From the UHGV virus genome UHGV-0258858: a DNA stretch of 13,232 nucleotides; one strand, 5' to 3'. The stretch comes from a virus. Of this stretch, positions 1 to 13,232 are shown piece by piece. The stretch's first letter is position 1, and each line of letters starts with the position of its first letter. A model generated the notes under the pieces. That model was given only the letters and a program-made list of their open reading frames with translations, searched no databases and was not told the DNA's origin. The translations under genes were made by a program, and so were the position numbers.

Positions 1-849
1 CTGGTCATCAAACCCTTTCGTTGCGGCCTCGTTCGCCGCCTGCAATGCCCCGGCTTCATCGCCGGAACGCTGCAACTGAGCAACATACGCAATCTGCTCT
101 GCCGTCACGTTACGGAACTGGCGCGCCATCGCCATCAGTCCCGACGTCGGGTCAGTGGCCAGCTTCCCGAAGGCTTCAGCGACTTTATCCACCTCCACAC
201 CGGATGCAGACGCAAAACGCGCGACACTCTGGTTAATGGCATCAAACTGTTCACCACCACGCACACCGGCATTCACCAGGGCTGCCAGTGACTCTCCCGC
301 CTGGTTAAACGTCAGCCCTGCTGCCTGCCCGGCTCTTGAGAGCGTCAGCATACGATCGGCAGTCAGTCCGGCCTGATTGCCGGAAAGGACCAGCGTTTTA
401 TTAAATTCTGAAAGCGTGGAATCCCCCTGGTACCAGGCGTACGCCAGCGCACCGGTCGCCACCGCCAGCGAGGTGACCCCGACCATCGGCAGGCTGATCG
501 CACCGGCAAGCCCCCTGAACATGGGGATCATCCCGCCGAAGGAGTCCTTCACCTGACCGCCCTGTTGCAGCAGGATGAGCCAGGGATTCTGACCACCGGC
601 AAGCTGCGTGGCGATATCCGTAAACTGTGCGGGCAGGGTACGCATGGCTGCTTTATACTGCCCGACGGAAATCCCGGCTTTTTGTGCGGCCAGCGCCTGA
701 CGGTTCAGACTCTGCTCAACGGCACCGGCGGTTTTTCTGGCGTCGGTATCCAGTCCTGAAAAATGACGCCTTACCCGGCTCATCTGCTCATCGAAACGGA
801 CAGCATCCAGACTCAGGTCAATAACAAGATCACCAACCGGCTGGGACAT
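1..849 (-). CDS. H: Tail tape measure protein (lambda gpH-like), N-terminal 283 codons; gene continues beyond the window start
   Basis: ATG at 849-847 preceded by GGAGG (minus strand GGAGGTGTGAGATATG). Translation MSQPVGDLVIDLSLDAVRFDEQMSRVRRHFSG...AANEAATKGFDDQ closely matches the lambda gpH N-terminus as recalled. Frame stays open to position 1. Start overlaps the end of the G-T frame by 20 nt. Confidence 0.9.
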   Translation of the reverse strand, partial: MSQPVGDLVIDLSLDAVRFDEQMSRVRRHFSGLDTDARKTAGAVEQSLNRQALAAQKAGISVGQYKAAMRTLPAQFTDIATQLAGGQNPWLILLQQGGQVKDSFGGMIPMFRGLAGAISLPMVGVTSLAVATGALAYAWYQGDSTLSEFNKTLVLSGNQAGLTADRMLTLSRAGQAAGLTFNQAGESLAALVNAGVRGGEQFDAINQSVARFASASGVEVDKVAEAFGKLATDPTSGLMAMARQFRNVTAEQIAYVAQLQRSGDEAGALQAANEAATKGFDDQ

Positions 850-1701
850 ATCTCACACCTCCGGAAATCCCCGCTGAAGCCATCATTAATGCAACATCAT
901 CCTCGCTGACATCCACCACATCTGCAGAAGGTGAAATATCGCCCCCTCCCTCCCCACCGAACCGGACGCCTCCGGCAAGTCCTGCCGCTTTCTGCATCAG
1001 CATGTCTTCCTCATCCGGCATCTCCGTCTGCGCTTCCTCTCGCCGGGGAGCCAGCAGACTGAAATCCGAGGGATGCATATCCGGATCGCAAAAAAACAGG
1101 CTGAGTACGGCGTACATCAGCCCGGAAAAATGCATATCCAGTTGGGTATCCTGAAAATAATGCGTGCGGTAAAAACGGTGCCAGTCGGCATATTCGGTGG
1201 ATGTCATCCCGGCAAGCATGGCGCGCCAGTCGGGTCTCCCCATCTCACGCGCCAGTCTGAGGGCAAAGTTCAGCTCGCCGTCGAAGACTTTCCCGCAGAA
1301 AAATCATCATCAGTAAGCACGTTATTTTTCGCCACTTCGGTGCTGTCAGTATCCGCATGAACAGCCCCGCTCATCCCGGACAGACGTAACACCACCTCTT
1401 CCGCCCGGGCAATGGCATCAGCCGGCCAGGTCGTCAGCACATCCTGTTCGATCTGCATCACGGCCTCATTCATTGACAGCAGCTGCACTTTCTCCGGATG
1501 GTTATGCCACAGGGACATCGCCACCAGAAACGCGCCGGTTCTGACAAGATCTTCCACACTCACCTGCAGGTTGCCGCTGGCTTCAGCCTCTTCTGCCCGC
1601 CGTTTCAGCAGGGCAAGATGCTCGATACGCTGCAGCGCAGACAGCTCCGAAAGCGTGACAGACACACCGTTATATTCAAATTGTTCTGTTTTAAGAAACA
1701 T
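830..1701 (-). CDS. T: Tail assembly chaperone G-T fusion product made by programmed -1 frameshift (lambda gpGT-like); T-domain frame runs 830..1294
   Basis: The -1 frame following the slippery site reads KVFDGELNFALRLAREMGRPDWRAMLAGMTSTEYADWHRFY...GGVRYVPAGW (tracked ORF 830..1243), matching the lambda gpT domain. It has no independent start near the slip site. Confidence 0.8.
1270..1701 (-). CDS. G: Tail assembly chaperone (lambda gpG-like), 143 aa
   Basis: ATG at 1701 preceded by AGGAGA at 7-nt spacing. Product MFLKTEQFEYNGVSVTLSELSALQRIEHLALL... aligns with lambda gpG along its length. The 6 codons upstream in the tracked ORF start from a GTG with no ribosome-binding site and are rejected. 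Confidence 0.9.
   Translation of the reverse strand: MFLKTEQFEYNGVSVTLSELSALQRIEHLALLKRRAEEAEASGNLQVSVEDLVRTGAFLVAMSLWHNHPEKVQLLSMNEAVMQIEQDVLTTWPADAIARAEEVVLRLSGMSGAVHADTDSTEVAKNNVLTDDDFSAGKSSTAS
1288..1294 (-). promoter_or_regulatory. Programmed -1 ribosomal frameshift slippery heptamer G GGA AAG at the G/T junction
   Basis: Minus-strand GCG GGA AAG sits 7 codons before the G stop, the same heptamer and position used for lambda G-T frameshifting. The T-domain frame is open immediately downstream in -1. Confidence 0.8.
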
Positions 1702-1722
1702 GCGTGTTCTCCTAAACACCCG

Positions 1723-2811
1723 TTACGCGGCAGGGACATTAACGGTTACTGTCGCCAGAGCGACAAAATTACCGTTATCACTCATGACCACGACCGACGT
1801 TGTTCCTTTCTCAAGTGCGTTTACCGTCACTGTGTTCTCCTTCAACGTGGCTGTGGCCACCGCACGATGCACGGTCGACACCCTTAATGAAGGATCAGAC
1901 GCATTATCCGGCAACACAGCCACAGTAAGTGTGCCTGCCTTCCCTTTTTCTAGGGTCAGGGTTTCCGGTTTAATGGTCACACCGGAAACCGGCGTAATTT
2001 TAGTGAGATTTTCAGCCATCGACGGGCGTCCCACATTGGTAACTTTCACCGTTCTGGTGATCACTTCCTTCGCCGTCACGGCCTTACCGATACTGCTGAC
2101 CCAGCCACTGAACACATCCACCGTACCATTCGGGAACCGGATTTTATAGGCCCTGACATCCCCGCTTTCAAACCATGCGATAAGCCCTTTCTGACCTTTC
2201 TCACCCGGTTTCCAGGCCAGCGTAAAACTGGTATCACCTGCAGATTTCTGTCCCTGCCCGGTCGCGGTCCAGTCCGCGTCTTCATCATCCAGGTAGTTAT
2301 CATCGTAGGATTCAGCCGTCATCTCGCCCGGCGTCAGATCCTTCACCTTAGCCAGTCGCTGCCAGTCATCGTCTGACAACGGGTTTGCATAAGCATCAGC
2401 CTTGCCGTTGTAAACCCACAGAGTGGTACCGGCACCTTTTACCGGCTCCAGGGGATTTGGTGTTGCCATATCGTCATCACGATGATACTCATAGCCCTGC
2501 GTAACCATCGTGGTAATCAGTCCTGCCAGTGCCGGGATCGCAGTCATCGCCGGATAAATCCGGCTTTCCATCCACTGATCGAGCTCCGAATCAGGTACCT
2601 GTGCCGGTAAAAACACCTCAATATGCAGTGTGGCCCGCCAGGTATCTGCATCCAGCTCTTCACCGGTATACTCTGCATCCGTCAGATAAACCGCGATCGC
2701 AGGAAAATCCTCTTCGTCAAAAACAACGGGGCGACCATCAAACAGCGTCGCCCCGTGTTCATGCTGCTCGAGTGCATCCAGCACTGCGGCACGAATGTCA
2801 GTGTGTTTCAT
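1723..2811 (-). CDS. Single 362-codon ORF: tail terminator (lambda gpU-like, residues 1-114, 2470..2811) fused in frame to major tail protein with C-terminal Ig-like domain (lambda gpV-like, 248 aa, 1723..2469)
   Basis: N-terminus [28 protein letters not shown]...[10 protein letters not shown] matches lambda gpU residues 1-114. It is followed directly by [20 protein letters not shown]...VTVNVPAA, which matches lambda gpV from its initiator Met. There is no stop, intergenic spacer or ribosome-binding site between the two parts. The U start overlaps the Z stop (ATGA). Confidence 0.85.
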
Positions 2812-3341
2812 CGTTTTATCGCAATCCTCAGTTGTTGTTTCAGCGCGTATGCCAGTTCTTTAGGCAGGCGTTCACGCCGGATACGGTCAACATTCTCATC
2901 AAATGCCTGTTTCAGTGGGGCCGCCATCGGGATTTTCACCACATCAATGGGGTAACGGTTTTTCCCGGCCACACGCTGCATGACATGCCAGCGACCATTT
3001 TTTAATCGCTGAATAAATGCCCGCTGATACCGATGCTGACCGGCTTTAAGTATGCTGTTCGGGCGACGCCCCAGCATCCTGATCCCCAGCTTAATCACAG
3101 GGAGATCACCGCGGTTAACGATAATTCTGGCATTCGGATTTCTGACCGTCGCCCGTTTCAGTCTGGACCGTTCCTTAACCAGTTTCCGGCGAACCTTTGT
3201 CTCCCGGGCAACCTGTGACGAAGACTGATTAATCGCCGTTGTGGCCACGCGGTTAATCGTCATTGCTGAAGCCGCCGGAATGGCGTTTTTACGAACCCGG
3301 CTCAGATTATCAATCGCCTGATCAAGCCCTTTTATCGCCAT
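2808..3341 (-). CDS. Z: Tail completion protein (lambda gpZ-like), 177 aa
   Basis: [16 protein letters not shown]...[23 protein letters not shown]...[26 protein letters not shown]...[15 protein letters not shown] aligns with lambda gpZ. ATG at 3341 is preceded by AGGGTGA. Confidence 0.9.
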
Positions 3342-3356
3342 AATTTCACCCTGCGT

Positions 3357-3710
3357 TTATCGTCGCCGGTTAACAGCGGGTGGTTGCCCACGGTTGAGCC
3401 AGAGATAACAGCTTCCCCCGTCATCCGGAGAAACACGATCCACCCAGAACATCTCGCCGTTAATGGTCAGCGTGTCACCACGCTGCACGGCACGCACCGT
3501 ATCCGTCCGCACAAATAATGACGGGCTGCTTCCTTCAATACGGACCCCGCCACCGGCAAAACCCAGCGACTCCGGATCGTCAAAAACCCCCTGAACTTCG
3601 CTTCCACGCTGTGCTCCCGAGGTGAACTGCGCACAGAGCCCCATCACTTCAACAATCGTGCTGTCCACCCCGGCAAGGGCAGCATCAAAGGCATTCTGAA
3701 AATCACGCAT
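3357..3710 (-). CDS. FII: Head-tail joining protein (lambda gpFII-like), 117 aa
   Basis: MRDFQNAFDAALAGVD...GVFDDPESLGFAGGGVRIEGSSPSLFVRTDTVRAVQRGDTLTINGEMFWVDRVSPDDGGSCYLWLNRGQPPAVNRRR is near-identical in length and motif order to lambda gpFII. Confidence 0.92.
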   Translation of the reverse strand: MRDFQNAFDAALAGVDSTIVEVMGLCAQFTSGAQRGSEVQGVFDDPESLGFAGGGVRIEGSSPSLFVRTDTVRAVQRGDTLTINGEMFWVDRVSPDDGGSCYLWLNRGQPPAVNRRR

Positions 3711-3939
3711 GCTCAGCCGTTCCGTGCTGTATCATGGCTGTCGCCAGTGGTGATGGCACCATAACACGCATGCCCCGGTACGTCAGTTCAACGGGACGGC
3801 CTGTCTCCGGGCAATACCCCATCACATGCAGGCATTTCCGCACACGGACCGCTTTAACATCATCCGTAGCATCCGTGTTGTGCAACTGCTCACCATCGTC
3901 TGTGTGATTTTGATCAGCCCCGCTCTCATCAGAGTGCAT
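3703..3939 (-). CDS. FI: C-terminal portion of DNA-packaging protein FI (lambda gpFI-like), 78 aa, separated from the N-terminal portion by an in-frame TAA
   Basis: ATG at 3939 preceded by GGAGGG at about 6-nt spacing. Acidic linker-like N-terminus (SDESGADQNHTDDGEQLHNTDATDD) followed by a region resembling the lambda FI C-terminal domain. Same frame as the N-terminal piece. Confidence 0.6.
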   Translation of the reverse strand: MHSDESGADQNHTDDGEQLHNTDATDDVKAVRVRKCLHVMGYCPETGRPVELTYRGMRVMVPSPLATAMIQHGTAEHA

Positions 3940-3969
3940 AATGCCCTCCGGGGAAACAGCAAGCTCCTC

Positions 3970-4086
3970 TTACCACTCAGACACACGTTGAGCAATATCC
4001 GCAGCACTCCCCGACATATCCGCCTCTCGCCCCAGCAGGCCAGCCAGTTCACGAAGGCGATTCAGATTTTCTTCTTTTGTTGCCAT
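3970..4086 (-). CDS. FI: N-terminal portion of DNA-packaging protein FI (lambda gpFI-like), 38 aa, ended by an in-frame TAA
   Basis: ATG at 4086 preceded by AGGAGA at 7-nt spacing. MATKEENLNRLRELAGLLGREADMSGSAADIAQRVSEW resembles the lambda FI N-terminus (MTKDELIARLRSLGEQLNRD...LALRVAEL). TAA at 3970-3972. Not in the ORF track because it is shorter than the cut-off. Confidence 0.6.
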   Translation of the reverse strand: MATKEENLNRLRELAGLLGREADMSGSAADIAQRVSEW

Positions 4087-4099
4087 CTCAGTCTCCTGT

Positions 4100-4131
4100 G
4101 AAAAAAGACACGGGGGCATTTCGCCCCCGCT
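4100..4131 (-). terminator. Rho-independent terminator immediately downstream of the major capsid gene
   Basis: Minus-strand CGGGGGC-GAAAT-GCCCCCG (7-bp GC stem, 5-nt loop; 4111-4117 pairs with 4123-4129) followed by GTCTTTTTTC. It starts 7 nt after the gpE stop. Confidence 0.7.
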
Positions 4132-4137
4132 CACGGA

Positions 4138-5166
4138 TTATTTCACCTGCACCACCACAAACTCATCCGGATCCGGCAGCACCATCAGCGGTGCGGACTG
4201 CGTCATGGTGAATTCACGGGCCGGATCGCCCACAGTCAGCCAGTGTTTCGGATAACGGGAAGAGGCCACCACACCTTCGGACAACGCCTGCGCATCCTGA
4301 ATGGCACCATAGCAACGAATGCCCTCTGCTGCCGTATTCCCCAGGACCAGTGTGCCCTCCGGCAGATAACGTTTTTCGGTACCGTCCTCTGCCACATAAG
4401 ACGTTTTCGCCACCACAATGGCCAGATCGCCGTAATACCCCTTGAAGGACACCACCGCCCCCAGGTCTTTCACTGCCGTTTCGAGTTGTGAATTTGAGCC
4501 GCGACGGGTATCCAGGTTTTCGCGGAACAGCTTAAAGCCATTCAGCAGACGCCAGACCGTACCGTCCATAATGGCGATATTCACAAGGCCGCTGGCCTGA
4601 TCGCAGTAGAGGTCAATATCATGCGTCGGATCAAACGTATCACGGTCCTGCTCAGACCATTTTTTACCGTCAGCCTGCTCAATGTTATTTCCTTCAGAGC
4701 GCCCGAAATCCACCTCGACAGTATCAAACTGATCCCCTTCCATGGTGTATTTGCCATACAGCACGGCATTCACCGCCTGCATTTCTTCCACCTGGACAAT
4801 GGCGTGCTCTTCCTGTTTGAGGTTATCGGTAATGATACGCAGACGACGGTAGGCCGGGTCGTTCAGCTGAGCCGGATCTTCACCGGGAAGGCGCTCAACC
4901 GCCTGCTGGTAATTAAATTCGTGTTTCGGCTTAACGTAGCCCGGACGTAACACGCGGGTTTCACCACCGCGATGGCGAAGCACTTTTCCTTCAACGATCG
5001 GGGAGACATAGGCCGCCACCGGCGTTTTTCCGGTAATTTTGTCCAGCATCACCTCTTCGGTGTGGAAATTCACCGTACGGCGGAAAAACAGCTCCAGAAA
5101 CAGCGCACGGAATTTAACTTTTTGTTCGGTATAACCGAGTAACTGGCGGGTCGTAAACAATCCCAT
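4138..5166 (-). CDS. E: Major capsid protein (lambda gpE-like), 342 aa
   Basis: MGLFTTRQLLGYTEQKVKF...PGYVKPKHE...VQVEEMQAV...KYTMEGDQFD...LDTRRGSNSQLETAVKDLG...GDPAREFTMTQSAPLMVLPDPDEFVVVQVK is collinear with lambda gpE (341 aa). AGGA ribosome-binding site 8 nt upstream of the ATG. Confidence 0.95.
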   Translation of the reverse strand: MGLFTTRQLLGYTEQKVKFRALFLELFFRRTVNFHTEEVMLDKITGKTPVAAYVSPIVEGKVLRHRGGETRVLRPGYVKPKHEFNYQQAVERLPGEDPAQLNDPAYRRLRIITDNLKQEEHAIVQVEEMQAVNAVLYGKYTMEGDQFDTVEVDFGRSEGNNIEQADGKKWSEQDRDTFDPTHDIDLYCDQASGLVNIAIMDGTVWRLLNGFKLFRENLDTRRGSNSQLETAVKDLGAVVSFKGYYGDLAIVVAKTSYVAEDGTEKRYLPEGTLVLGNTAAEGIRCYGAIQDAQALSEGVVASSRYPKHWLTVGDPAREFTMTQSAPLMVLPDPDEFVVVQVK

Positions 5167-5194
5167 AAATCAGTTCCTTTCATTCAGAAATCAG

Positions 5195-5216
5195 TCAGGC
5201 CACCATGGTGGCCTGA
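5195..5216. repeat. Perfect 22-bp palindrome TCAGGCCACCATGGTGGCCTGA in the gpD-gpE intergenic region
   Basis: Every base pairs with its mirror partner (5195 with 5216 through 5205 with 5206). Lies between the gpD stop (5224) and the gpE start (5166). No flanking U-tract. Confidence 0.8.
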
Positions 5217-5223
5217 TAACGTG

Positions 5224-5571
5224 TTACGGCAGAGCCGCGTGACTCAGGGCTGTACCGGCAAAGGCATTTGCCTTTTTGTGTTCATCCACACTGTCAGGCC
5301 AGCGGATTGCCTCCGTCGCAAAGGTCCCCGACTTGTAATAGGTCAGCACCGTCTCTGTGCCTTCAAGCGGCAGTACCAGTATGCCAGCCGCACTACCGGC
5401 TTTCTGTCCATCCCAGACCACCAGTTTCCCGGTGGCTTCATCCAGCATCAGGGGCGTCAGAGCCGGTGTTGCCTGAGAAATCCCGCTGCTGCCTGTGGCG
5501 ATATGAGCCGGATCATTACCGGCAAAAATACGTACTTCTGCACGTTGTTCAGTGATGGTTTTCGTTACCAT
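5224..5571 (-). CDS. D: Head decoration protein (lambda gpD-like), 115 aa
   Basis: Motifs DPAHIATG...TPLMLD...KLVVWDG...GILV...YYKSGTF...FAGTA match lambda gpD. ATG at 5571 with GAGGT about 9 nt upstream. Confidence 0.9.
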   Translation of the reverse strand: MVTKTITEQRAEVRIFAGNDPAHIATGSSGISQATPALTPLMLDEATGKLVVWDGQKAGSAAGILVLPLEGTETVLTYYKSGTFATEAIRWPDSVDEHKKANAFAGTALSHAALP

Positions 5572-5607
5572 ATTGTAAAAACCTCATATTGATGGTCAGC
5601 ACTGACT

Positions 5608-7113
5608 TCATGGCATGGCCATGAGCATTTTCACGTCCGCATCACCGTCTGCTGACGTCTGTGACACGCCACCCTGCACGGCTGCCGGTGAATGGTTCGC
5701 CATGAAATGTTCAAACAGGGCGGTTGTGGATGCAGAGACCGGTTCTGCTTTATCCGGCAATGAGGACAGAATGTCGCGGGCAGCCTCCACCGTCATTCCG
5801 GGAAACGCCGCCAGTTTTTCAGCCTGCGCCTCAGCCCCTTTTGCCTCATCCAGAGCCATAATCTGATCACGGAGTGAGGGTCCGGCATCCGCCTGCGGTG
5901 AAGCCGCCAGGATCGGGCGGGCTTTTTCCACCGTCATCTCCGGCATCGCCGCCAGCGTTGCCGCCAGTTGTTCACGACCTTTAGCCTCTTCACACGCCAT
6001 AATGCGATCGGCTTCACTCTGCGTGGATGCCACCGGCTGCTGTGGTGCTGCCGCGGTCAGAATCGCCCGGGCCTGTTCAACGCTCATGCCCTGTTGTCCT
6101 GCCAGCATCGTGGCAAGGTGTTCACGTCCTTTCGCTTCCTGACACGTCAGGATCCCCATCACTCGCTGGTTCTCCTGCGCGGCAGCTTCCGTTGCAGTTA
6201 ATTGCGGCATAGTGCCTCCTGTATCATGTGTGTTCAGCGCCGCAGCCATCACGCTGATGGCATCCGACGCATTGATTAATTCATCCGCCAGCCCGGCCTC
6301 AATGCCGGACTGACCTTCAAAAACGGCGGCCTCTGTTCCCGTGACTGCATCAACAGACAGACCGGTATACATCGCCACTTTTTCGGCAAACATCCGGCGC
6401 GCCGCATCAATCCGCTGCTGCATGTCCTGGCGAACCTCTTCCGGCAACGCTTCAAACCGATTGCCATCCACCTTGTGCGCCCCTGAGTAAATCAGCGTGA
6501 TATCCACACCGGCCTGCGCCAGATGACCGGCATAGCTGACATGGCTCATCATCACGCCAATGGAGCCGATACGGGATGTCTGGGTAACCAGCCGTCGGGA
6601 GCAGGCCGACGCCAGCAGCATGGCTGCAGAACAGGCCGTGTCATTGCACAGTGCCCAGACCGGCTTCTGCTGACGGAGGCGGTAAATCATGTCAGCACAG
6701 TCAAACGCACCGGCGGCCTGCCCGCCCGGACTGTCAATGTCCAGCAGTACACCCCGCACCTGGCTATCCGCCATTGCCTGCTGAAGACAGGCGACAATGC
6801 CGTCATAGCCTGTCATTCCGGAAAATGGCCGCATACCCCCCAGCCGGTGCACCAGCGTGCCTGTCACCGGCAGTACAGCAATACCGTTCACCACCCGGTA
6901 AACACGGGCCGGTCGTTTACCTCCGGCCATGTACTCGTCCGTTTCAGCCAGCATTCCGGGTGCATCAAGCTGTACCTGCTGTTGTGGTACCGAAAGACTT
7001 GCTGCCCCCATCTCGCGCCCGAGCGCGCAAAAGAAAACCCGCGCATAGGCGGGCTCCAGAAGCAGCGGTTCATTGAATGCTGCTGCAATAATGTGTGAAA
7101 GATTACGTCTCAC
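5608..7113 (-). CDS. C: Prohead protease / scaffold (lambda gpC-like, S49 ClpP-fold peptidase N-terminal domain with Nu3-like scaffolding C-terminal region), 501 codons from a GTG start
   Basis: N-terminal LSHIIAAAFNEPLLLEPAYARVFFCAL...VNGIAVLPV(T)GTLV...GMTGYDGI...LLDIDSPGG...AFDCAD...KPVWAL...SRRLVTQTSRIGSIGVMM...VDITLIYSGAHKVDGN aligns with lambda gpC. GTG at 7113 preceded by AGAGGAGA and overlapping the portal stop. Confidence 0.9.
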   Translation of the reverse strand: MRRNLSHIIAAAFNEPLLLEPAYARVFFCALGREMGAASLSVPQQQVQLDAPGMLAETDEYMAGGKRPARVYRVVNGIAVLPVTGTLVHRLGGMRPFSGMTGYDGIVACLQQAMADSQVRGVLLDIDSPGGQAAGAFDCADMIYRLRQQKPVWALCNDTACSAAMLLASACSRRLVTQTSRIGSIGVMMSHVSYAGHLAQAGVDITLIYSGAHKVDGNRFEALPEEVRQDMQQRIDAARRMFAEKVAMYTGLSVDAVTGTEAAVFEGQSGIEAGLADELINASDAISVMAAALNTHDTGGTMPQLTATEAAAQENQRVMGILTCQEAKGREHLATMLAGQQGMSVEQARAILTAAAPQQPVASTQSEADRIMACEEAKGREQLAATLAAMPEMTVEKARPILAASPQADAGPSLRDQIMALDEAKGAEAQAEKLAAFPGMTVEAARDILSSLPDKAEPVSASTTALFEHFMANHSPAAVQGGVSQTSADGDADVKMLMAMP

Positions 7114-8695
7114 GTGGTGTTGTCTCCTCTTCCGGCCTGCGACTCTCCGCTATCTGCTGCTGATACGCCTGCACTATCCACACCGGACGTGAGAGTCCGG
7201 CTTTTTCCCGCTCTGCAGATTCCCTGACCTGCTGGCGGAAAATGTCCTGATAATCCTCGCCCATCAGCGCCAGCTCTTTCTCATACGTGCTCAGTCCGGC
7301 CTCAATGCGCATCACTGATTCCTGAACCTCCTTGAGCCCGTCAATGGCCATTCTTCCGGCTCCAATCCACTCAGCCCGTGACCAGGCTGATCGCGCCTGA
7401 TAAAAATCAAAACGTGCCCGTGGCGGACGAATAATCCCCCGAAGAAGTGCCTCTTCCAGCCAGCAGGAAAACATCTGCGTGGCCAGCCGGGACGCAATAA
7501 ATTTTCGCCGCCCCATAAAATAGCGCCACGACTCATTGGCGGATGCGCGGGCACTTGAATAACTGACCTTCGAGTAATCACGGGACAACTGTTCGTAGGA
7601 AACGCCAAGACCGGCGGCGATATACCGCAGCAGCGCCTGTTCAAGCGCCGAAAATCCATTGTCTGAATCCTGCGCGGTCTGAAGTTTCAGATCATCACCG
7701 GGGAAAAGGTGCGGAATTTTGACACCGCCCAGCGTCACGCTATTCGTGTCATACCAGGTGGAGAACTTATCCAGAATATTAATAAGCGGATTATCCTTCT
7801 GCCCCTGCGGCGCACCGGCGATATATTCAAAGGCCTTTTCGGTATCAAGGTCACTTTCAATCGTCGCTGCATACATCGCCTTCACTATGGCCGACTGAAG
7901 CTGTGTTGCCTGCAGGGAATCCAGCATCTTCAGCCGTTCCATAACGCTGTAAAACTGATTGGCTCCACGGGTCTGCCCGTCCTCCACCGGCTCGAAAATA
8001 TGCAGCATGGCCGGACGCCCGGTGGGAAGTTCACGCGGGATCCGTTCCCATCGTCCACTCCCGGAGCGAGGAAAATCATCCTCACAGATATGGTACGCAA
8101 CGGCACGGCCATATCGATCAACCTCCACACCGGCCCGCAGAAAACGGTTCCCGATACCGTGTCCTGGCGTGTCCACCCGTTTCGGACTCACGGCTTTAAA
8201 ACGCGTACGAAACAGTTGCGTGCTCTCCGTATCCCAGACCGGCTGCACAAAGATTTCGCCGTTAAACGCATGAACGCCCACACCTTCACGGATAAATTCC
8301 GTAAACGTGCGTTTCCCTTCCACGTCGATCTCACCAAACATCCCTTCTGCGTATTCTGACCAGGCCGCCTCCACCTCATCGACAAAACTTTTTGCCGCGG
8401 TCTCCCGCATCCCCAGCCAGCGCCAGTTCGGACGGTAGCTAATCAGAAACATATGCCCGACAATGTGATCCTTATGCAGGGCCACCGCATTGGCCGCTAT
8501 TCCGTTATTGCGCACCAGATCATCTGCACGGGCATTCCCCAGACGCAACGCGGGCAGCAGGGCCGCATCGGCACTCTGCGAGGGTGGCAACCACTCTGCC
8601 ATTTGCCCGCCAAATCCTGCGCCGCCCCCGTTGTAGCTTAGGCTCTCCCGAAGCGGAACGCCGTTCACATCAATCAGGACAGGCGTTCGTTTCAT
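7103..8695 (-). CDS. B: Portal protein (lambda gpB-like), 530 aa
   Basis: MKRTPVLI...FEPVEDGQTRGANQFYSVMERLKMLDSLQATQLQSAIVKAMYAATIESDLD...SYEQLSRDYSKVSYSSARASANESW...RMAIDGLKEVQESVMRIEAGLSTYEKE is collinear with lambda gpB (533 aa). Confidence 0.95.
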   Translation of the reverse strand: MKRTPVLIDVNGVPLRESLSYNGGGAGFGGQMAEWLPPSQSADAALLPALRLGNARADDLVRNNGIAANAVALHKDHIVGHMFLISYRPNWRWLGMRETAAKSFVDEVEAAWSEYAEGMFGEIDVEGKRTFTEFIREGVGVHAFNGEIFVQPVWDTESTQLFRTRFKAVSPKRVDTPGHGIGNRFLRAGVEVDRYGRAVAYHICEDDFPRSGSGRWERIPRELPTGRPAMLHIFEPVEDGQTRGANQFYSVMERLKMLDSLQATQLQSAIVKAMYAATIESDLDTEKAFEYIAGAPQGQKDNPLINILDKFSTWYDTNSVTLGGVKIPHLFPGDDLKLQTAQDSDNGFSALEQALLRYIAAGLGVSYEQLSRDYSKVSYSSARASANESWRYFMGRRKFIASRLATQMFSCWLEEALLRGIIRPPRARFDFYQARSAWSRAEWIGAGRMAIDGLKEVQESVMRIEAGLSTYEKELALMGEDYQDIFRQQVRESAEREKAGLSRPVWIVQAYQQQIAESRRPEEETTPRET

Positions 8696-8896
8696 AACCT
8701 CACTCCCAGCGGACGACGGCGACGGCGGGTTGTCCCCAGTACCGACTCCGCATCATTGAGCCCGGTTAAGCTCATCCAGAGAAGCTGCCGTATATTCAAT
8801 TCTGCGACCATCTTTCTGGACAGACACCACCCGTTTACCGGTTAATAAATCAAGGCGCGCCTGACGCAGCGCCTGCAGTTCAGCGACTGTAACCAT
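8692..8896 (-). pseudogene. W: Head-tail joining protein W (lambda gpW-like) split across two reading frames by an apparent frameshift
   Basis: Frame a: ATG at 8896 (GGAGGAG ribosome-binding site) gives [47 protein letters not shown], then a stop at 8753-8755; this matches lambda gpW residues about 4-50. Frame b (+1): ...[21 protein letters not shown] ends in a TGA that overlaps the portal ATG (ATGA) and matches the lambda gpW C-terminus (...[21 protein letters not shown]). One gene, two frames. Confidence 0.6.
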
Positions 8897-10808
8897 TCAC
8901 TCCTCCGGACAGCTTCGCTGCCAGTTCTTTAAGGGTTGGCCGGGTCGTCTCTTCTTCCCGGGATTTTGCCAGTACAGCCAGATCAAGCTGCCAGCGTTGC
9001 ACGGACACACGTAATGCCGCGTAGGCATACACCAGGCAGTCCAGCGCTTCGTTACGCCGCTTTTTGTTATCCCACAGCAGACGCATCTTTCCTTTTTCCC
9101 ACTTCTCCACAAGCTCTTCCGCCACCAGTTGCTGCGCCTCTGTCTGCGAAAAAATCTCCGGATCATCAGGAAAACGGATGGCATACGACGTGGCTTCATC
9201 CGCAGGCGTGGGATCGGCTTTCATACGGGCATAGAGAATTTCTTTTGCGGTGTCCGTCCCCACTTCGCACAGATACACGCCCCGCTGATTGCGGGTTTTT
9301 GGCATGGTGATCACCGGCTTGCCATAAACAGATGCACCTTTTACCGGCAGCCCCCGGAAAACACCGTGTTTTTTTGACCTCTGATAGACAATTTCGCCAT
9401 CGATCCCCCCGGTGTCCCAGCAGACACGGGAAATGGTCATTTCGGTTCCGTCTGCATGGCGGTATTTTTTGTTGATCGCCACATCCACACGTAACAGCGT
9501 CTCTTCCTCATCGGGACGCCCCATAATGATGATTTTATCCACCAGAAAGGCTTCCTCTCCCGGAGCCCATCCCCAGACATACATCTCAAAACGGTTTCGC
9601 TGCGAGTCAATGCCCGCCGTCAGATAAACCACCCGGGCAGGCACCGCCGCCGTGTAACGCACAACCTTATCCATCAGTACCTGGTGATCGAGTTTTTCGC
9701 CCACGGCCTCTTCCCAGGTCTCGCCCAGCGTGGTGTTCACAAAGGTTTTCAGGCCGTTGGGATCTTTCAGTGCATCCAGCCAGTCATAGACAATCTGTAC
9801 CCAGGTGGTGAACGGACTGTACGCCGTCCAGATATGGAATGTGATGGAGCGCGGCGGCGGAATTTCATTACCCGCAGCGCTGAAAAACGTCAGGCCGTCA
9901 CGGGTCCACATGCCCGTGTTTTCACAGATCCACCGCCCGTTGCTCTGGTCAAGATCAGACTGATGGATCACGCAGCCATGATGTTCACAGAGGTAGAAAA
10001 CACTTTCTGGACTGTCCTTCTCCCATTTAAGGCCAAAAGGCGTGGACTCATCGCCAAATTTCAGATACTGCGCCTCCCCACAGTGTGGGCAGGGCACATA
10101 AAAACGCATGAAATGCGCCGACTCGTTGGCCGCTTTTTCGATCTGGCAGGAGCCTTTTATTTTAGGCGTCGAGCCGCGAATGGATTTTGGCCATACCGAG
10201 CCCTCAATACGCTTATCCCCCAGCAGGGTTGGCGAGCCCTCTTTTTCGACATCCGGCTCGAACGAGGAAAGTTCGTCATAGCAGACCACGTCCACGGATT
10301 TTTCACGGTAGTTTTTTGCTGCCGCACCACCCAGGCACCAGAAGCCCACCCCCGATGAAAAGCGTTTCAGCGTGAGAGTATTGTCACGATGTTTACGACC
10401 CAGCCACGGGGAAAGATCTTTCAGGCATGGCACGTCCCGAATCGTCGCCTCCACGTGAGACTTCATAAAATCTTCAGCGGCAGAATCCGTGGGCTGAAAA
10501 AGCAGACTGTTTCGGGATTTATGCTCAATAAAATACCCGGCGACTCCCAGCAACATCTTTGTATAGCCAACACGGGCAGATTTAATCAGATTAACAGTGC
10601 GGATCTGATCATTCCCCATACTGTTCATGATGGCGATCTGGAACGGCAGCGTTTTCCATTCGCCGTCACCGTATGAGGATTCTTTCGGCAGATAATAATA
10701 CTGGTCAGCCCATTCAACTGCCGTCATCGGTACAACCCTGACCAGAGGCTGCAGCGCAACCGAAACGGCGGCCACCATATTATTCAGTTGTTGCTCTGAT
10801 ATATTCAT
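8880..10808 (-). CDS. A: Terminase large subunit (lambda gpA-like), 642 aa
   Basis: [10 protein letters not shown]...[37 protein letters not shown]...[32 protein letters not shown]...[26 protein letters not shown]...CPHCGE.QYLKFGD...[18 protein letters not shown]...[11 protein letters not shown]...KRRNEALDC is collinear with lambda gpA (641 aa). Start chosen by alignment; the 19-codon upstream extension in the tracked ORF overlaps Nu1 and is rejected. Start overlaps the Nu1 3' end by 29 nt, as in lambda. Confidence 0.95.
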
Positions 10809-11286
10809 CGAGTAAATCCGGTAATTTATCCCCCGCCCGCGCACACTGATTTGCCCCCTTCGCAATAAGGGTTTTCAGATGGTCAAGATGGCGCGGTGTT
10901 AAATCAGGAAACTGTCGCTGCATGGATAACGGAATGGAATCAAGCGTACTGGACAATGCCATCGCCAGTTTGCTGAGGGCGAAAACGCAGAAGTCTGAAT
11001 CGATGAGCTTACCTTCGGTTACCTGATTTTTAAGTTTTTGAGCTACAGCCTGTTCTTCTGTCAGTTCAGCTCTGGCCCGAAGCAGCCTTTCCTCCAGTTC
11101 TCCCCCGTCATCAGGTGTTCTCTGATTGTGTTGTCGCCGCTCGCGATCTATCTCCAGTACAGTTTTAACGTCATATAAAACTTCCCTCCCCCGACGTTCA
11201 ACAGGAGGAACGCCCCATTTATCAAATGCCTGAACAGAGATACCGATGGAGGAGGCCATATCACTTTTATTCAATAAAAAGGCCAT
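10780..11286 (-). CDS. Nu1: Terminase small subunit (lambda gpNu1-like), 168 aa
   Basis: ATG at 11286 immediately preceded by GGAGAGGAG. MAFLLNKSDMASSIGISVQAFDKWGVPPVERRGREVLYD... aligns with the lambda Nu1 N-terminal DNA-binding region (MEVNKKQLADIFGASIRTIQNWQEQGMPV...GNEVLYD); C-terminus ...RQFPDLTPRHLDHLKTLIAKGANQ resembles lambda ...RRFPELENRHVDFLKRDIIKAMNK. The 35-codon upstream extension in the tracked ORF is rejected. Confidence 0.85.
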   Translation of the reverse strand: MAFLLNKSDMASSIGISVQAFDKWGVPPVERRGREVLYDVKTVLEIDRERRQHNQRTPDDGGELEERLLRARAELTEEQAVAQKLKNQVTEGKLIDSDFCVFALSKLAMALSSTLDSIPLSMQRQFPDLTPRHLDHLKTLIAKGANQCARAGDKLPDLLDEYIRATTE

Positions 11287-11502
11287 CTCCTCTCCATAAG
11301 TCATCGATAAAAAGCGAAACAACAACCATGTGTTTTTGCAAAACCATTTGATATCATTGATATTTTTCGCATTGACGACATCAAAACACATCGTAAGGTT
11401 GTTGTATTTATTTTATTTTCACCTTACTTATCAATTAGATATACAAAACAATTAAACAACAACCACCCCCTCAAAAAATCTCATAAATAGTGAAAACGCG
11501 CG
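11287..11502 (-). promoter_or_regulatory. cosB-like terminase-binding region between cosN and the Nu1 start: three copies of a GGTTGTTGT element in direct/inverted/direct arrangement around an AT-rich segment
   Basis: Minus-strand GGTTGTTGTTT at about 11455-11465 and 11317-11327; inverted copy (plus-strand GGTTGTTGTATTT) at 11398-11410. The AT-rich stretch 11410-11455 lies between them. The arrangement parallels lambda R3 / IHF site / R2 / R1, but the repeat sequence is not the lambda one. Confidence 0.6.
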
Positions 11503-11514
11503 AGGTCGCCGCCC
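11503..11514 (-). other. cosN cohesive-end site, exact match to the lambda 12-nt cohesive end GGGCGGCGACCT
   Basis: Minus strand reads ...CCGTTACGGGGCGGCGACCTCGCGCGTTTTCACTATTTATGAGATTTTTT..., matching lambda cosN and its flank (GGGCGGCGACCTCGCGGGTTTTCGCTATTTATGAAAATTTT) with only a few substitutions. Orientation is correct relative to Nu1. Confidence 0.85.
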
Positions 11515-11881
11515 CGTAACGGCCCGGATCGCCGGAAAGGACCCGAGAAAATGATAATGGTTATCAGTTGCAACAAAATCCAGTTTCTTCCACCATCGCA
11601 CCGGACGAGCGACCATGAGGGGACAACGCCACGCTCCGTTAACGCGGTAAACTCCGGTGTTTATCGTTTTTGATTATCCCCGCACACTCGCGCAGAGGAG
11701 TCTCCCGGTAGGGCTGCGGTCTCTGTTCATGTGGGAATACGGCGACGATACTGCGCAAAGACATGCTTCAGAAATACATAAGTAAACTAAAATATTGTAT
11801 CTCTGTGGCTAATTACGTAAATTGGTGGCTTGGCCCCTTTAGCCACCGGCAAATCTTCAGCGGATTATCCTTGGCCGGTTT

Positions 11882-12340
11882 TTATCTGAGGCATTGCTCA
11901 CGAATGTATAGCTGTGCCCCTTCCAGCTGCTTCTGCATTGTCATCAACCGTTCTCTGAGGATGAAATAATCCCGTTCAGCGGCGTCTGCCAGTCTGGGGC
12001 CGGTTGCATTATCCACGCCGGAGGTGGTGGGGGCTTCACGCACGGAGCCTGGACAGGTGGCGTTGATCCGCAGGCGCTTACGACCAGCGGCAACGTCAGC
12101 GCGAAGAGTTTCATTTTCAGCTCTCGCATCGGCTAATTCCCTCGAGTATTTTGCATCGAGCGCAGCAACATCGCGCTGGCGCACCTGCATATCAGTAATG
12201 GTTGCGTTCGCCAGCTTCAGTTCACTGGCTTTGTTATCGCGCTGCGCTTTGTAGGTAATCGCGTTATCACGGTAATGGTCTGTTGCCATCCACAGCGCTC
12301 CACAGGCCACCAGCAGAATAACGATAAACGCGGAAAGCAT
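11882..12340 (-). CDS. Rz: Inner-membrane spanin (lambda Rz-like), 152 aa from ATG 12340; alternative GTG start at 12355 overlaps the upstream stop
   Basis: [90 protein letters not shown]...[43 protein letters not shown] is near-collinear with lambda Rz (153 aa): N-terminal transmembrane segment then coiled coil. Confidence 0.92.
11944..12129 (-). CDS. Rz1: Outer-membrane lipoprotein spanin (lambda Rz1-like), 61 aa, embedded in the +1 frame of Rz
   Basis: [61 protein letters not shown]: signal peptide with lipobox (VSAC), penta-proline stretch, and near-identity to lambda Rz1 (...[32 protein letters not shown]). Lies entirely within Rz. Confidence 0.85.
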
Positions 12341-12351
12341 TCGGTTTATGT

Positions 12352-12483
12352 TCACCCCAGCAGCCCCGACGAAGACAACATCATCCAGGCCATGGAAAGA
12401 AAAAGAGCAACCAGCATTAGTGAAAATGAAATGCCGACAATTACACAGAGGATCTTCGCCAGCGTTATGAGTTTGTCTGACAT
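12352..12483 (-). CDS. Small hypothetical membrane protein, 43 aa ([43 protein letters not shown]), between the endolysin and Rz
   Basis: ATG at 12483 preceded by a strong ribosome-binding site (AAGGGAGGA, 7-nt spacing). Single predicted transmembrane helix. Stop TGA overlaps the GTG at 12355 of the Rz frame. No family recognised. Confidence 0.55.
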
Positions 12484-12497
12484 GCTTAATCCTCCCT

Positions 12498-12680
12498 TCA
12501 CGATTTCAACGCAATGACCAGTTTTGCCAGCCCATACAGCATCGGGGACACAGCAACACCGACCGCCACCCACTTAATGGCAAAAGCCAGTGCTCTGCTG
12601 ATGTCATCAGTTACAGGCGCTTTCAGTTCAAGGCCGTTTTTCATAGTCAACCTCAACAGAATTCGTTTATACTTTTCCAT
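12498..12680 (-). CDS. Small hypothetical protein with C-terminal transmembrane anchor, 60 aa from ATG 12680 (71 aa if started at GTG 12713)
   Basis: [60 protein letters not shown]: basic N-terminus and hydrophobic C-terminal segment. AGGGAGA precedes the ATG at a short (3-4 nt) spacing. Stop TGA sits inside the ribosome-binding site of the next small ORF. The GTG alternative lies inside the terminator hairpin. No family recognised. Confidence 0.45.
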
Positions 12681-12707
12681 GTTCTCCCTTGCCTTATCCA
12701 AGGTCAG

Positions 12708-12747
12708 AAACACAAAACCCCGCTTGCAGCCAACAAACGGGGTTTTT
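12708..12747 (-). terminator. Intrinsic terminator hairpin between the endolysin stop and the small ORFs; U-tracts on both sides, better stem on the minus-strand transcript
   Basis: Plus strand CCCCGCTTG-CAGCCAA-CAAACGGGG (12718-12742) followed by TTTTTACTTTTATT. On the minus-strand RNA the single C/A mismatch becomes a G-U pair, giving a 9-bp stem with a 7-nt loop followed by UUUUGUGUUU. Confidence 0.65.
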
Positions 12748-12836
12748 ACTTTTATTCACTTAGTTTTTGTCAGTTCGCAGGATTTCGTGTTATCCGTCCG
12801 TGTGAGCAAACCGCATTTTTCAGCAAAATATTCTGC

Positions 12837-13232
12837 TTATCTGTCAATTCCCCAGCACGCCAGCGCGCTCTCCTGGTCACGCCGCGATACCTGCCCGTAA
12901 CAGTTATTTGAGCGATTCCGACAGTCCCTGCCGCCGTCATATATCCATCGGCGGATTTCAGCACATGCACCTTTCCGGTCTCCGGCGTTCAGTTTCCGGT
13001 AAAACGTTGAGGTGAAGCATTTCGAAGGCCCGATGTTGTACGGACAGAATGACGCGATGCCCGCTTTCTGCGGTTCAGTCAGTGGCAATTTGATGTTTTT
13101 CTCCACCCATGCCAGCGCCTTATCACGTTCAATGGCATTAACCTGAGCGCATTTTTCCTTCGACAACTTCATGCCCGGGACGACAGGTTTGCCATCCACC
13201 ATGATGGCACCACGGCAGATGGTCCAGATACC
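12837..13232 (-). CDS. R: Endolysin, T4/phage-21-type lysozyme (glycoside hydrolase family 24), C-terminal 131 codons; 5' end lies beyond the window end
   Basis: Frame open from the window edge: GIWTICRGAIMVDGKPVVPGMKLSKEKCAQVNAIERDKALAWVEKNIKLPLTEPQKAGIASFCPYNIGPSKCFTSTFYRKLNAGDRKGACAEIRRWIYDGGRDC...ALACWGIDR resembles phage 21 R / T4 lysozyme-type endolysins (GVWTVCHG...GACDQLRRWTYAGG). TAA stop at 12837-12839. Confidence 0.9.
   Translation of the reverse strand, partial: GIWTICRGAIMVDGKPVVPGMKLSKEKCAQVNAIERDKALAWVEKNIKLPLTEPQKAGIASFCPYNIGPSKCFTSTFYRKLNAGDRKGACAEIRRWIYDGGRDCRNRSNNCYGQVSRRDQESALACWGIDR

Follow-up and report, generated by a model that had tools for sequence, protein, structure and literature searches.

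Damage to W, FI and U-V in a lambdoid Escherichia coli element: probable stepwise decay of a prophage

How does a lambdoid head-tail module that looks almost complete come to be broken in several morphogenetic genes at once? The question is raised by UHGV-0258858, a 13,232-bp stretch of viral DNA (the window, by which we always mean the whole stretch that was analyzed), which annotated relatives and Pfam families identify as the minus-strand late operon of a lambda/phage-21-type siphovirus. A first-pass annotation made from the sequence had noted likely disruptions of the head-tail adaptor gene W, of the packaging gene FI, and of the junction between the tail genes U and V, and had set two readings side by side: early mutational decay of a resident prophage, or assembly errors. 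We hold with good confidence that the window comes from a recently decayed lambdoid prophage of E. coli, in which three sequential inactivating mutations have struck four morphogenetic genes that lambda requires. The three lesions are real and independent of one another, they recur in independently assembled contigs, and intermediates with one or two of them are preserved in public metagenomes.

Three lesions on an otherwise collinear background

The nearest relative of the window, a prophage of E. coli NCTC9112, is 99.7% identical to it over 100% of its length, and their pairwise alignment contains 41 single-nucleotide polymorphisms (SNPs) and four indels. The indels that are the window's own are deletions of 61 bp and 2 bp, and these together with one SNP are the proposed lesions; the fourth indel, an extra T in the NCTC9112 terL gene, belongs to NCTC9112 and is not a lesion of the window. 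The genes of the window otherwise contain no indels relative to intact relatives; the remaining module genes had been judged intact from the sequence, and their frames, including those of the terminase, portal, capsid and spanin genes, are indeed collinear with those of viable relatives, as is the cohesive-end site cosN. The sequence around each of the three events is neither a homopolymer nor a simple repeat.

The disruption that had been placed within 8692..8896 is a frameshift in W, caused by a 2-bp deletion between positions 8759 and 8760. On the coding strand the dinucleotide GA is lost, converting GCGATC to GCTC (GCGATCAAT to GCTCAAT). What remains is a truncated W of 47 residues (8753..8896, minus strand), consisting of 46 native residues, a glutamine and a stop, and matching positions 3-43 of the 66 in Pfam gpW, whereas intact W has 68 residues. 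The former 3' end of the gene (8692..8752, minus strand) is now out of frame; in lambda numbering it corresponds to the end of helix 2, which spans residues 37-54, and to the C-arm, residues 55-68, which binds the portal (PMC10721106). The C-terminal coding sequence remains open in the +1 frame, but the W stop shows no evident slippery or recoding signal.

The in-frame TAA in FI is likewise genuine. At window position 3972 there is an A in place of the C of NCTC9112, a G>T change on the coding strand that converts FI codon 39 from GAA to TAA (3970-3972). The N-terminal remnant (3970..4086, minus strand) comprises 38 codons followed by the TAA, so that 38 of 127 residues are left, and matches positions 1-36 of the 131 in Pfam Packaging_FI. 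Downstream lies the orphaned 3' part of FI, an in-frame open reading frame (ORF) of 78 codons (3703..3939, minus strand), which begins at an ATG (3939) ten codons past the TAA and has GGAGG upstream with a 5-nt spacer. Reinitiation there may be possible, and FI may be expressed in two pieces and not be fully null. No suppressor tRNA able to read TAA was found within the window, and a comparison of FI with PDB sequences gave no match. In the lineage with the nonsense allele, the major capsid protein E also has a derived change, K217N (window 4516).

The third lesion, predicted near 2469 as a loss of the U C-terminus that fuses U to V, proved to be a 61-bp deletion at 2464/2465 relative to NCTC9112. 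The deletion ends within an 11-bp perfect direct repeat, GCCATATCGTC (plus strand), of which the window retains one copy (2465-2475). Intact relatives have two copies, 61 bp apart, one within the codons for DDDMA, close to where U ends, and the other across the V start; in L001 (compared sequences are designated by L numbers) they lie at 3965-3975 and 4026-4036. Judged by its endpoints, the deletion has the signature of slipped mispairing between short direct repeats, and the repeat pair predisposes the intact relatives, the PhiR12 phages and NCTC9112, to exactly this event. V is read in the +1 frame with respect to U, and a deletion of 61 bp (3n+1) therefore joins the two genes in frame. The resulting 362-residue fusion ORF (1723..2811, minus strand) contains U residues 1-115 and the complete V (248 residues) from its own Met1, and Pfam recognizes in it, in this order, positions 1-118 of the 130 in Phage_tail_U, a complete Phage_TTP_12 and Big_2. 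The deletion takes away the final 16 residues of U, LWSSADLTYSITYEM, which are nearly identical in lambda, along with the stop codon of U, the spacer between the genes and GAGG, the Shine-Dalgarno sequence of V.

All three alleles have been recovered more than once. The window is close to the entirety of a gut metagenome contig in the ENA (ERZ27281170:k141_1491; 13,257 bp), to which it is 100% identical. A second contig, L014 from ERZ28631070, carries all three lesions and is 100% identical to the window over all gene segments, about 12 kb, with one difference in the cos region. Two contigs from SRR7351995, L015 and L008, carry these lesions too, L015 having the truncated W together with the FI nonsense allele. 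Taken singly, the 47-residue W is encoded on 15 contigs, the identical 362-residue fusion protein on six contigs from different samples and assemblers, and the 38-residue FI product is indexed in 35 collection blocks, human-gut metagenomes included. Since the same alleles recur in independently assembled contigs, assembly error, the alternative offered in the first-pass annotation, is excluded.

Order of the lesions and recurrence of the W deletion

Haplotypes were assigned by typing every fetched contig. Two contigs (L019, L022) have only the FI nonsense mutation, with W and the U/V junction intact; two (L023, L024) combine it with the U::V fusion and retain an intact W; and the window (L012) and L014 have all three lesions. 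Among the contigs typed, none has the U::V fusion with an intact FI. This nested series of one, two and three lesions agrees with what stepwise decay predicts, and the most parsimonious order on these haplotypes is FI nonsense, then U::V deletion, then W frameshift, the last in company with a V486G replacement in the large terminase subunit TerL. The decay is recent, because outside the lesions the module is still 99.7-100% identical to that of intact relatives. Early mutational decay, as first suggested, is thus supported and made more precise. Public metagenomes evidently keep the intermediates, so that the order in which one prophage lineage decayed can be read directly.

L020 and L021 are 99.0-100% identical to the window per segment over about 9 kb, and besides the GA in W they differ from it mainly by the terL SNP at 9352 (V486G) and by a few changes in the cos region; L020 additionally diverges at its contig end in U. 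Among the contigs compared, V486G is found only in the triple-lesion haplotype (the window and L014), and every other contig compared, like lambda, phage 21 and PhiR12, keeps the valine at residue 486. V486G may be a fourth, missense, hit. A private SNP at window 11661, in the intergenic region between cos and Rz, sets the window apart from L014, L020 and L021.

The U::V fusion appears to have arisen once: except for a recombinant block in L023, every copy lies on the same flanking haplotype, and repeated independent origin is unsupported on this shared background. The FI and U::V alleles also occur on mosaic backgrounds, L019 differing in Nu1, the 5' part of A, and Z, L024 and L025 in the 3' end of FI and in FII, and L005 in G, which indicates that the lineage recombined with other lambdoid elements while it carried the lesions.

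The W deletion has a different distribution. The identical GA deletion is present in prophages with intact FI, U and V on differing backgrounds: in phage-21/DLP12-like elements (L009, on a 3.47-Mb contig, L010, L013, L016 and the complete genome of E. coli FEX669) and on the additional backgrounds of L011, L017 and L018, the loci with this allele also including L026. In all it lies on four to five flank haplotypes, the recurrence on different haplotypes that is expected of a mutational hotspot. Four of these haplotypes each have an intact-W twin with no mismatches in about 620 nt of flank: L019-L021 for the window type; phage 21, L035 and L071 for the 21 type; L080, L116 and L121 for the L011 type; and L073, L114 and L126 for the L018 type. 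Over the same flank the haplotypes with the deletion are 5-16 mismatches apart from each other. Markers that distinguish the L011 type flank the deletion at distances of only 3 nt (upstream) and 10 nt (downstream), and for this type import by recombination is practically excluded because of their proximity; spread of one original deletion by recombination is accordingly rejected at least for the L011 type, and is unlikely for the others. One contig of this group, L018 (SRR34286546), has in addition a terL split into ORFs of 94 and 528 residues at a G-run (255-2184), through decay or a homopolymer error.

The deletion destroys a GATC site, and GATC is a motif that some long-read platforms are known to miscall. 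A generic Dam-site or long-read error is rejected, since in the 21-like loci the W deletion is the sole indel relative to phage 21 across 12.5 kb containing about 50 GATC sites; in the window lineage, moreover, the allele occurs in k-mer-assembled metagenome contigs. We lean, with some reserve, toward a true mutational hotspot of lambda/21-type prophages, at which the same deletion has arisen independently at least twice and probably four to five times. The mechanism may involve the GATC site in some way, or else template switching within a short quasipalindrome. The deletion converts TGAGC-N8-GC(GA)TCA into TGAGC-N8-GCTCA, a perfect 5-bp inverted repeat, and lowers the energy of the DNA hairpin from -1.3 to -3.7 kcal/mol. 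With 26 of 200 shuffled sequences folding as well, and a 5-bp stem being short for a classical quasipalindrome hotspot, these figures lend the hairpin explanation weak support. A 9-nt ectopic match in B is at chance level. If the hotspot is true, head completion would be a preferred first point of failure in the decay of these prophages, and the same W frameshift on unrelated backgrounds points to a site-specific mutational bias in prophage inactivation.

Consequences for virion assembly and competing explanations

What would these lesions mean for the phage? All four genes, W, FI, U and V, count as essential in lambda (PMC10695390 Table 1), and W and U of the window family align residue for residue with lambda gpW (68 residues) and gpU (131 residues). 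All 131 residues of gpU belong to its fold, so loss of U residues 116-131 should destroy that fold. By the lambda assignments, then, inactivating mutations lie in essential virion genes, as expected of a defective prophage, and the element would very probably be unable to make infectious particles unaided. By defective we mean unable to complete virions alone, a definition compatible with packaging, lysis and helper-assisted transfer.

The course of events that we propose begins with the G>T nonsense mutation in the packaging chaperone FI. The 61-bp slipped-mispairing deletion then cost the tail terminator U its last 16 residues and V its ribosome-binding site, so that the tube protein V would be produced solely as part of a U-V fusion whose translation begins at the U start codon. 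In the third step, the 2-bp frameshift deprived the head-tail adaptor W of the end of helix 2 and of the portal-docking C-arm. Upon induction, replication, cutting at cos, filling of heads (less efficient without FI) and lysis should remain possible. The filled heads would stay unclosed and unjoined for lack of W, and normal tails would be neither built nor terminated for lack of free V and functional U. Infectious particles would form only if a co-resident lambdoid prophage provided W, FI, U and V. Such a genotype would persist only through vertical inheritance as a prophage, which would explain its base-for-base recurrence in several gut metagenomes.

The prophage state itself we infer from three considerations: the nearest relative, that of NCTC9112, is chromosomally integrated; so many lethal lesions cannot be maintained by lytic spread; and at least 120 IMG/VR contigs have an intact W sequence, with none carrying the deletion. 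The recurrence of the same sequence in separate metagenomes gives indirect support for a vertically inherited prophage. The IMG/VR viral contigs contained no match for the FI, W or U::V lesion alleles, no FI or W lesion allele was matched in the JGI metagenomes or the GTDB representative genomes, and in about 50,000 phage records the lesion alleles were absent, the best matches all having intact genes.

Several points weigh against the reading of the window as a decayed and inactive prophage. Integration is unseen: the contig breaks off within R at one end and within H at the other, and searches turned up no longer contig that carries these alleles. Neither the FI nonsense allele nor U::V occurs in any of 5,426 complete E. 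coli genomes, and the W deletion occurs in one. Loss of function through the W, U::V and FI alleles is argued from analogy with lambda. For FI, gpFI is essential in vivo, and suppressors in the terminase or capsid genes bypass it in lambda (PMC13595911). The FI lesion alone may also be leaky, given the persistence of the 78-codon C-terminal ORF with its good Shine-Dalgarno sequence; leakiness would fit with the FI allele being the oldest and most widespread of the three. The triple-lesion haplotype was counted from three sources, of which ERZ28631070 and SRR7351995 may be one biological sample.

In favour of decay, the derived changes of the window lineage, polarised by outgroups, comprise 8 nonsynonymous SNPs (nonsense included) and 3 synonymous ones, against 134 nonsynonymous to 268 synonymous between viable PhiR12_4 and phage 21 (Fisher p about 0.01-0.03), with a derived ratio of 5 to 1 (p = 0.019) when restricted to the same genes. 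The derived changes, TerL V486G among them, suggest relaxed constraint, but as the excess comes from few sites and a post hoc test, we take it as supportive only.

Among the other explanations, the one that fares best is that the element is defective alone yet mobile, co-resident lambdoid prophages supplying W, FI, U and V in trans while its cos genome is packaged and transferred. Its terminase, cosN, portal, protease, capsid and decoration genes are intact, and in E. coli genomes that carry homologous modules the number of such places has a median of 2 and reaches 19. Defective prophages of O157 Sakai are packaged, and some are transferred, with inter-prophage help (PMC2669165). The mosaic backgrounds of the FI and U::V alleles show recombination with other lambdoid elements, but recombination between prophages can yield mosaicism without particles. 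Packaging of the element is moreover without direct evidence, its alleles are absent from IMG/VR, and the U::V fusion protein could poison tail assembly by the helper. We regard such mobility as possible though rather doubtful, and it would extend the explanation by recent prophage decay without replacing it.

Could the mutations instead be tolerated or compensated, and the phage be viable? On this proposal the E K217N change would act in the manner of a fin suppressor, or terminase changes would do so, V would start from its internal ATG, and W would be dispensable or its frame restored. Mutations in the 'EFi domain' of the lambda capsid can bypass FI, the FI nonsense allele is the most widespread of the three and occurs on several mosaic backgrounds, the V start codon is kept inside the fusion, and the W C-terminal sequence is open in the +1 frame. 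Against viability, lambda cannot do without W, U and V, the signal for ribosome binding ahead of V is gone, U lacks a conserved terminal segment of its fold, and the W stop is without an evident slippery or recoding signal. The absence of the alleles from the phage records and from IMG/VR points the same way, and we consider a viable phage very improbable.

Equally improbable is a chimera, in which the lesions are real and the contig has been joined from co-occurring strains, so that no single genome has all three. Metagenome assemblers can merge near-identical strains, and haplotypes with one and two lesions do coexist in nature. The triple-lesion contigs L012 and L014, however, come from assemblies of different samples and are 100% identical in their gene segments, lesion pairs are linked on single contigs (W with FI on L015, FI with U::V on L023 and L024), and the triple type has a private marker in TerL V486G; we put the chance of a chimera as very slight.

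The weakest alternative, that the lesions, in part or entirely, are errors confined to a single metagenome contig, can appeal to a source in a short-read assembly (a k141 contig) and to the GATC context of the W deletion, but is contradicted by the recurrence of every allele across samples and assemblers, by the near-identical contig L020, of similar k141 naming, in which W is intact, by the sequence context of all three events, by the single indel among the many GATC sites of the phage-21-like loci, and by a frameshift call in W in a complete genome, and it has next to no probability left.

Layout of the window and relation to known elements

On the minus strand, to which all features below belong, the window reads R', two small ORFs, Rz/Rz1, cos, Nu1, A, W, B, C/Nu3, D, E, FI, FII, Z, U, V, G, T, H'. 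The canonical order from Nu1 to H (Nu1-A-W-B-C/Nu3-D-E-FI-FII-Z-U-V-G-T-H) with matching protein families, and a 12-nt cohesive end upstream of Nu1, identify the module as lambda/phage-21-type. Both contig ends fall within phage genes, R on one side and H on the other: the 3' part of the endolysin gene R (12837..13232) and the 5' part of the tape-measure gene H (1..849), the latter collinear with H in PhiR12_4 and NCTC9112, run to the contig edges. The lysis region also contains the spanin gene Rz (11882..12340; Pfam Phage_lysis), with Rz1 embedded in it (11944-12129; lipobox LVVSAC). The cosN noted in the first-pass annotation is present as an exact match to the lambda-type 12-nt sequence GGGCGGCGACCT at 11503-11514.

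Next come the small terminase subunit gene Nu1 (10780..11286; Pfam Phage_Nu1), which is intact and 100% identical in NCTC9112, and the large subunit gene A (8880..10808), with its frame intact and the V486G change. The frame of the portal gene B (7103..8695) is intact, and the W stop codon no longer overlaps the B start. Comparison with relatives shows intact frames in the prohead protease/scaffold gene C-Nu3 (5608..7113), in E (4138..5166; lineage-specific K217N) and in the head-tail joining gene FII (3357..3710; lineage-specific R76Q), and an intact head decoration gene D (5224..5571). The tail completion gene Z (2808..3341) is intact and encodes 177 residues, the same size as in PhiR12_4 and NCTC9112. 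Beyond the fusion lie the tail assembly chaperone gene G (1270..1701; Pfam Phage_TAC_2) and T (830..1243; Pfam Phage_tail_T), a tail assembly protein made as the G-T frameshift product and 100% identical in NCTC9112; a motif search places the predicted -1 frameshift site, the slippery heptamer GGGAAAG, near the end of G (1288-1294).

How, then, does the element compare with known ones? The NCTC9112 prophage (NZ_LR134079.1, about 2.04-2.09 Mb) shares its gene order, its Nu1/cos type and the U-V direct repeats, and differs in that W, FI, U and V are intact. It has damage of its own: terL is annotated as frameshifted by the extra T, an IS3 insertion sequence lies next to an integrase pseudogene, and there is a DUF1627 pseudogene. 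In the coordinates of this sequence (L003) the damage maps to 26943-28872 and 42779-44430, the terL indel being either a long-read error or real decay.

The database entries for Escherichia phages PhiR12_1, PhiR12_2, PhiR12_4 and PhiR12_5 (PV340549-PV340554) are complete phage genomes and name E. coli C or K-12 as host. These phages are about 97% identical across 97% of the window and share the module and the 11-bp repeat pair at the U/V junction. In contrast to the window they have separate U and V genes, full FI and full W, all their morphogenetic genes being intact. The 5' end of Nu1 and the cosB segment also differ, so that 11068-11473 is unaligned with PhiR12_4, whereas the same segment is about 99.9% identical to NCTC9112 (one SNP, at 11391). 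This is a mosaic swap of the terminase-specificity segment that adjoins the lambda-type cosN.

Phage 21 and lambda have the same module gene order and are, unlike the window, fully functional phages. The head genes of phage 21 are 90-98% identical to those of the window, the tail genes from Z to T only 72-82%. Lambda has an identical cosN, and its W of 68 residues and U of 131 are collinear with those of the window family, but it is without the U/V direct repeat. The W deletion itself is found again in the phage-21-like prophage at the DLP12 site of E. coli O150:H6 FEX669 (NZ_CP065152.1), where the Prokaryotic Genome Annotation Pipeline (PGAP) calls the gene 'frameshifted'. That prophage is about 98.5% identical to phage 21, its FI, U and V are intact, and it has 13-14 mismatches to the window in the 620 nt around the deletion.

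The prophages Sp3-Sp15 of O157 Sakai and DLP12, Rac and Qin of K-12 are lambdoid prophages whose morphogenesis genes have been disabled by point lesions, insertion sequences or deletions, with terminase and lysis functions kept. Most are more degraded than the window, with insertion sequences, large deletions, and repressor or integrase lost. Since the window has only small visible lesions, in surroundings essentially identical to functional relatives, it represents an earlier stage of decay. Prophage decay by small lesions is well known, and in this respect our main finding changes little; the element is an ordinary defective prophage at an early stage, of a type already catalogued for O157 Sakai and K-12, and it is mildly novel only in its repeatedly arising W frameshift and in the intermediates that have been preserved. 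It is nevertheless a clean and well-documented example, and a warning to annotators that a head-tail module that looks complete can be dead.

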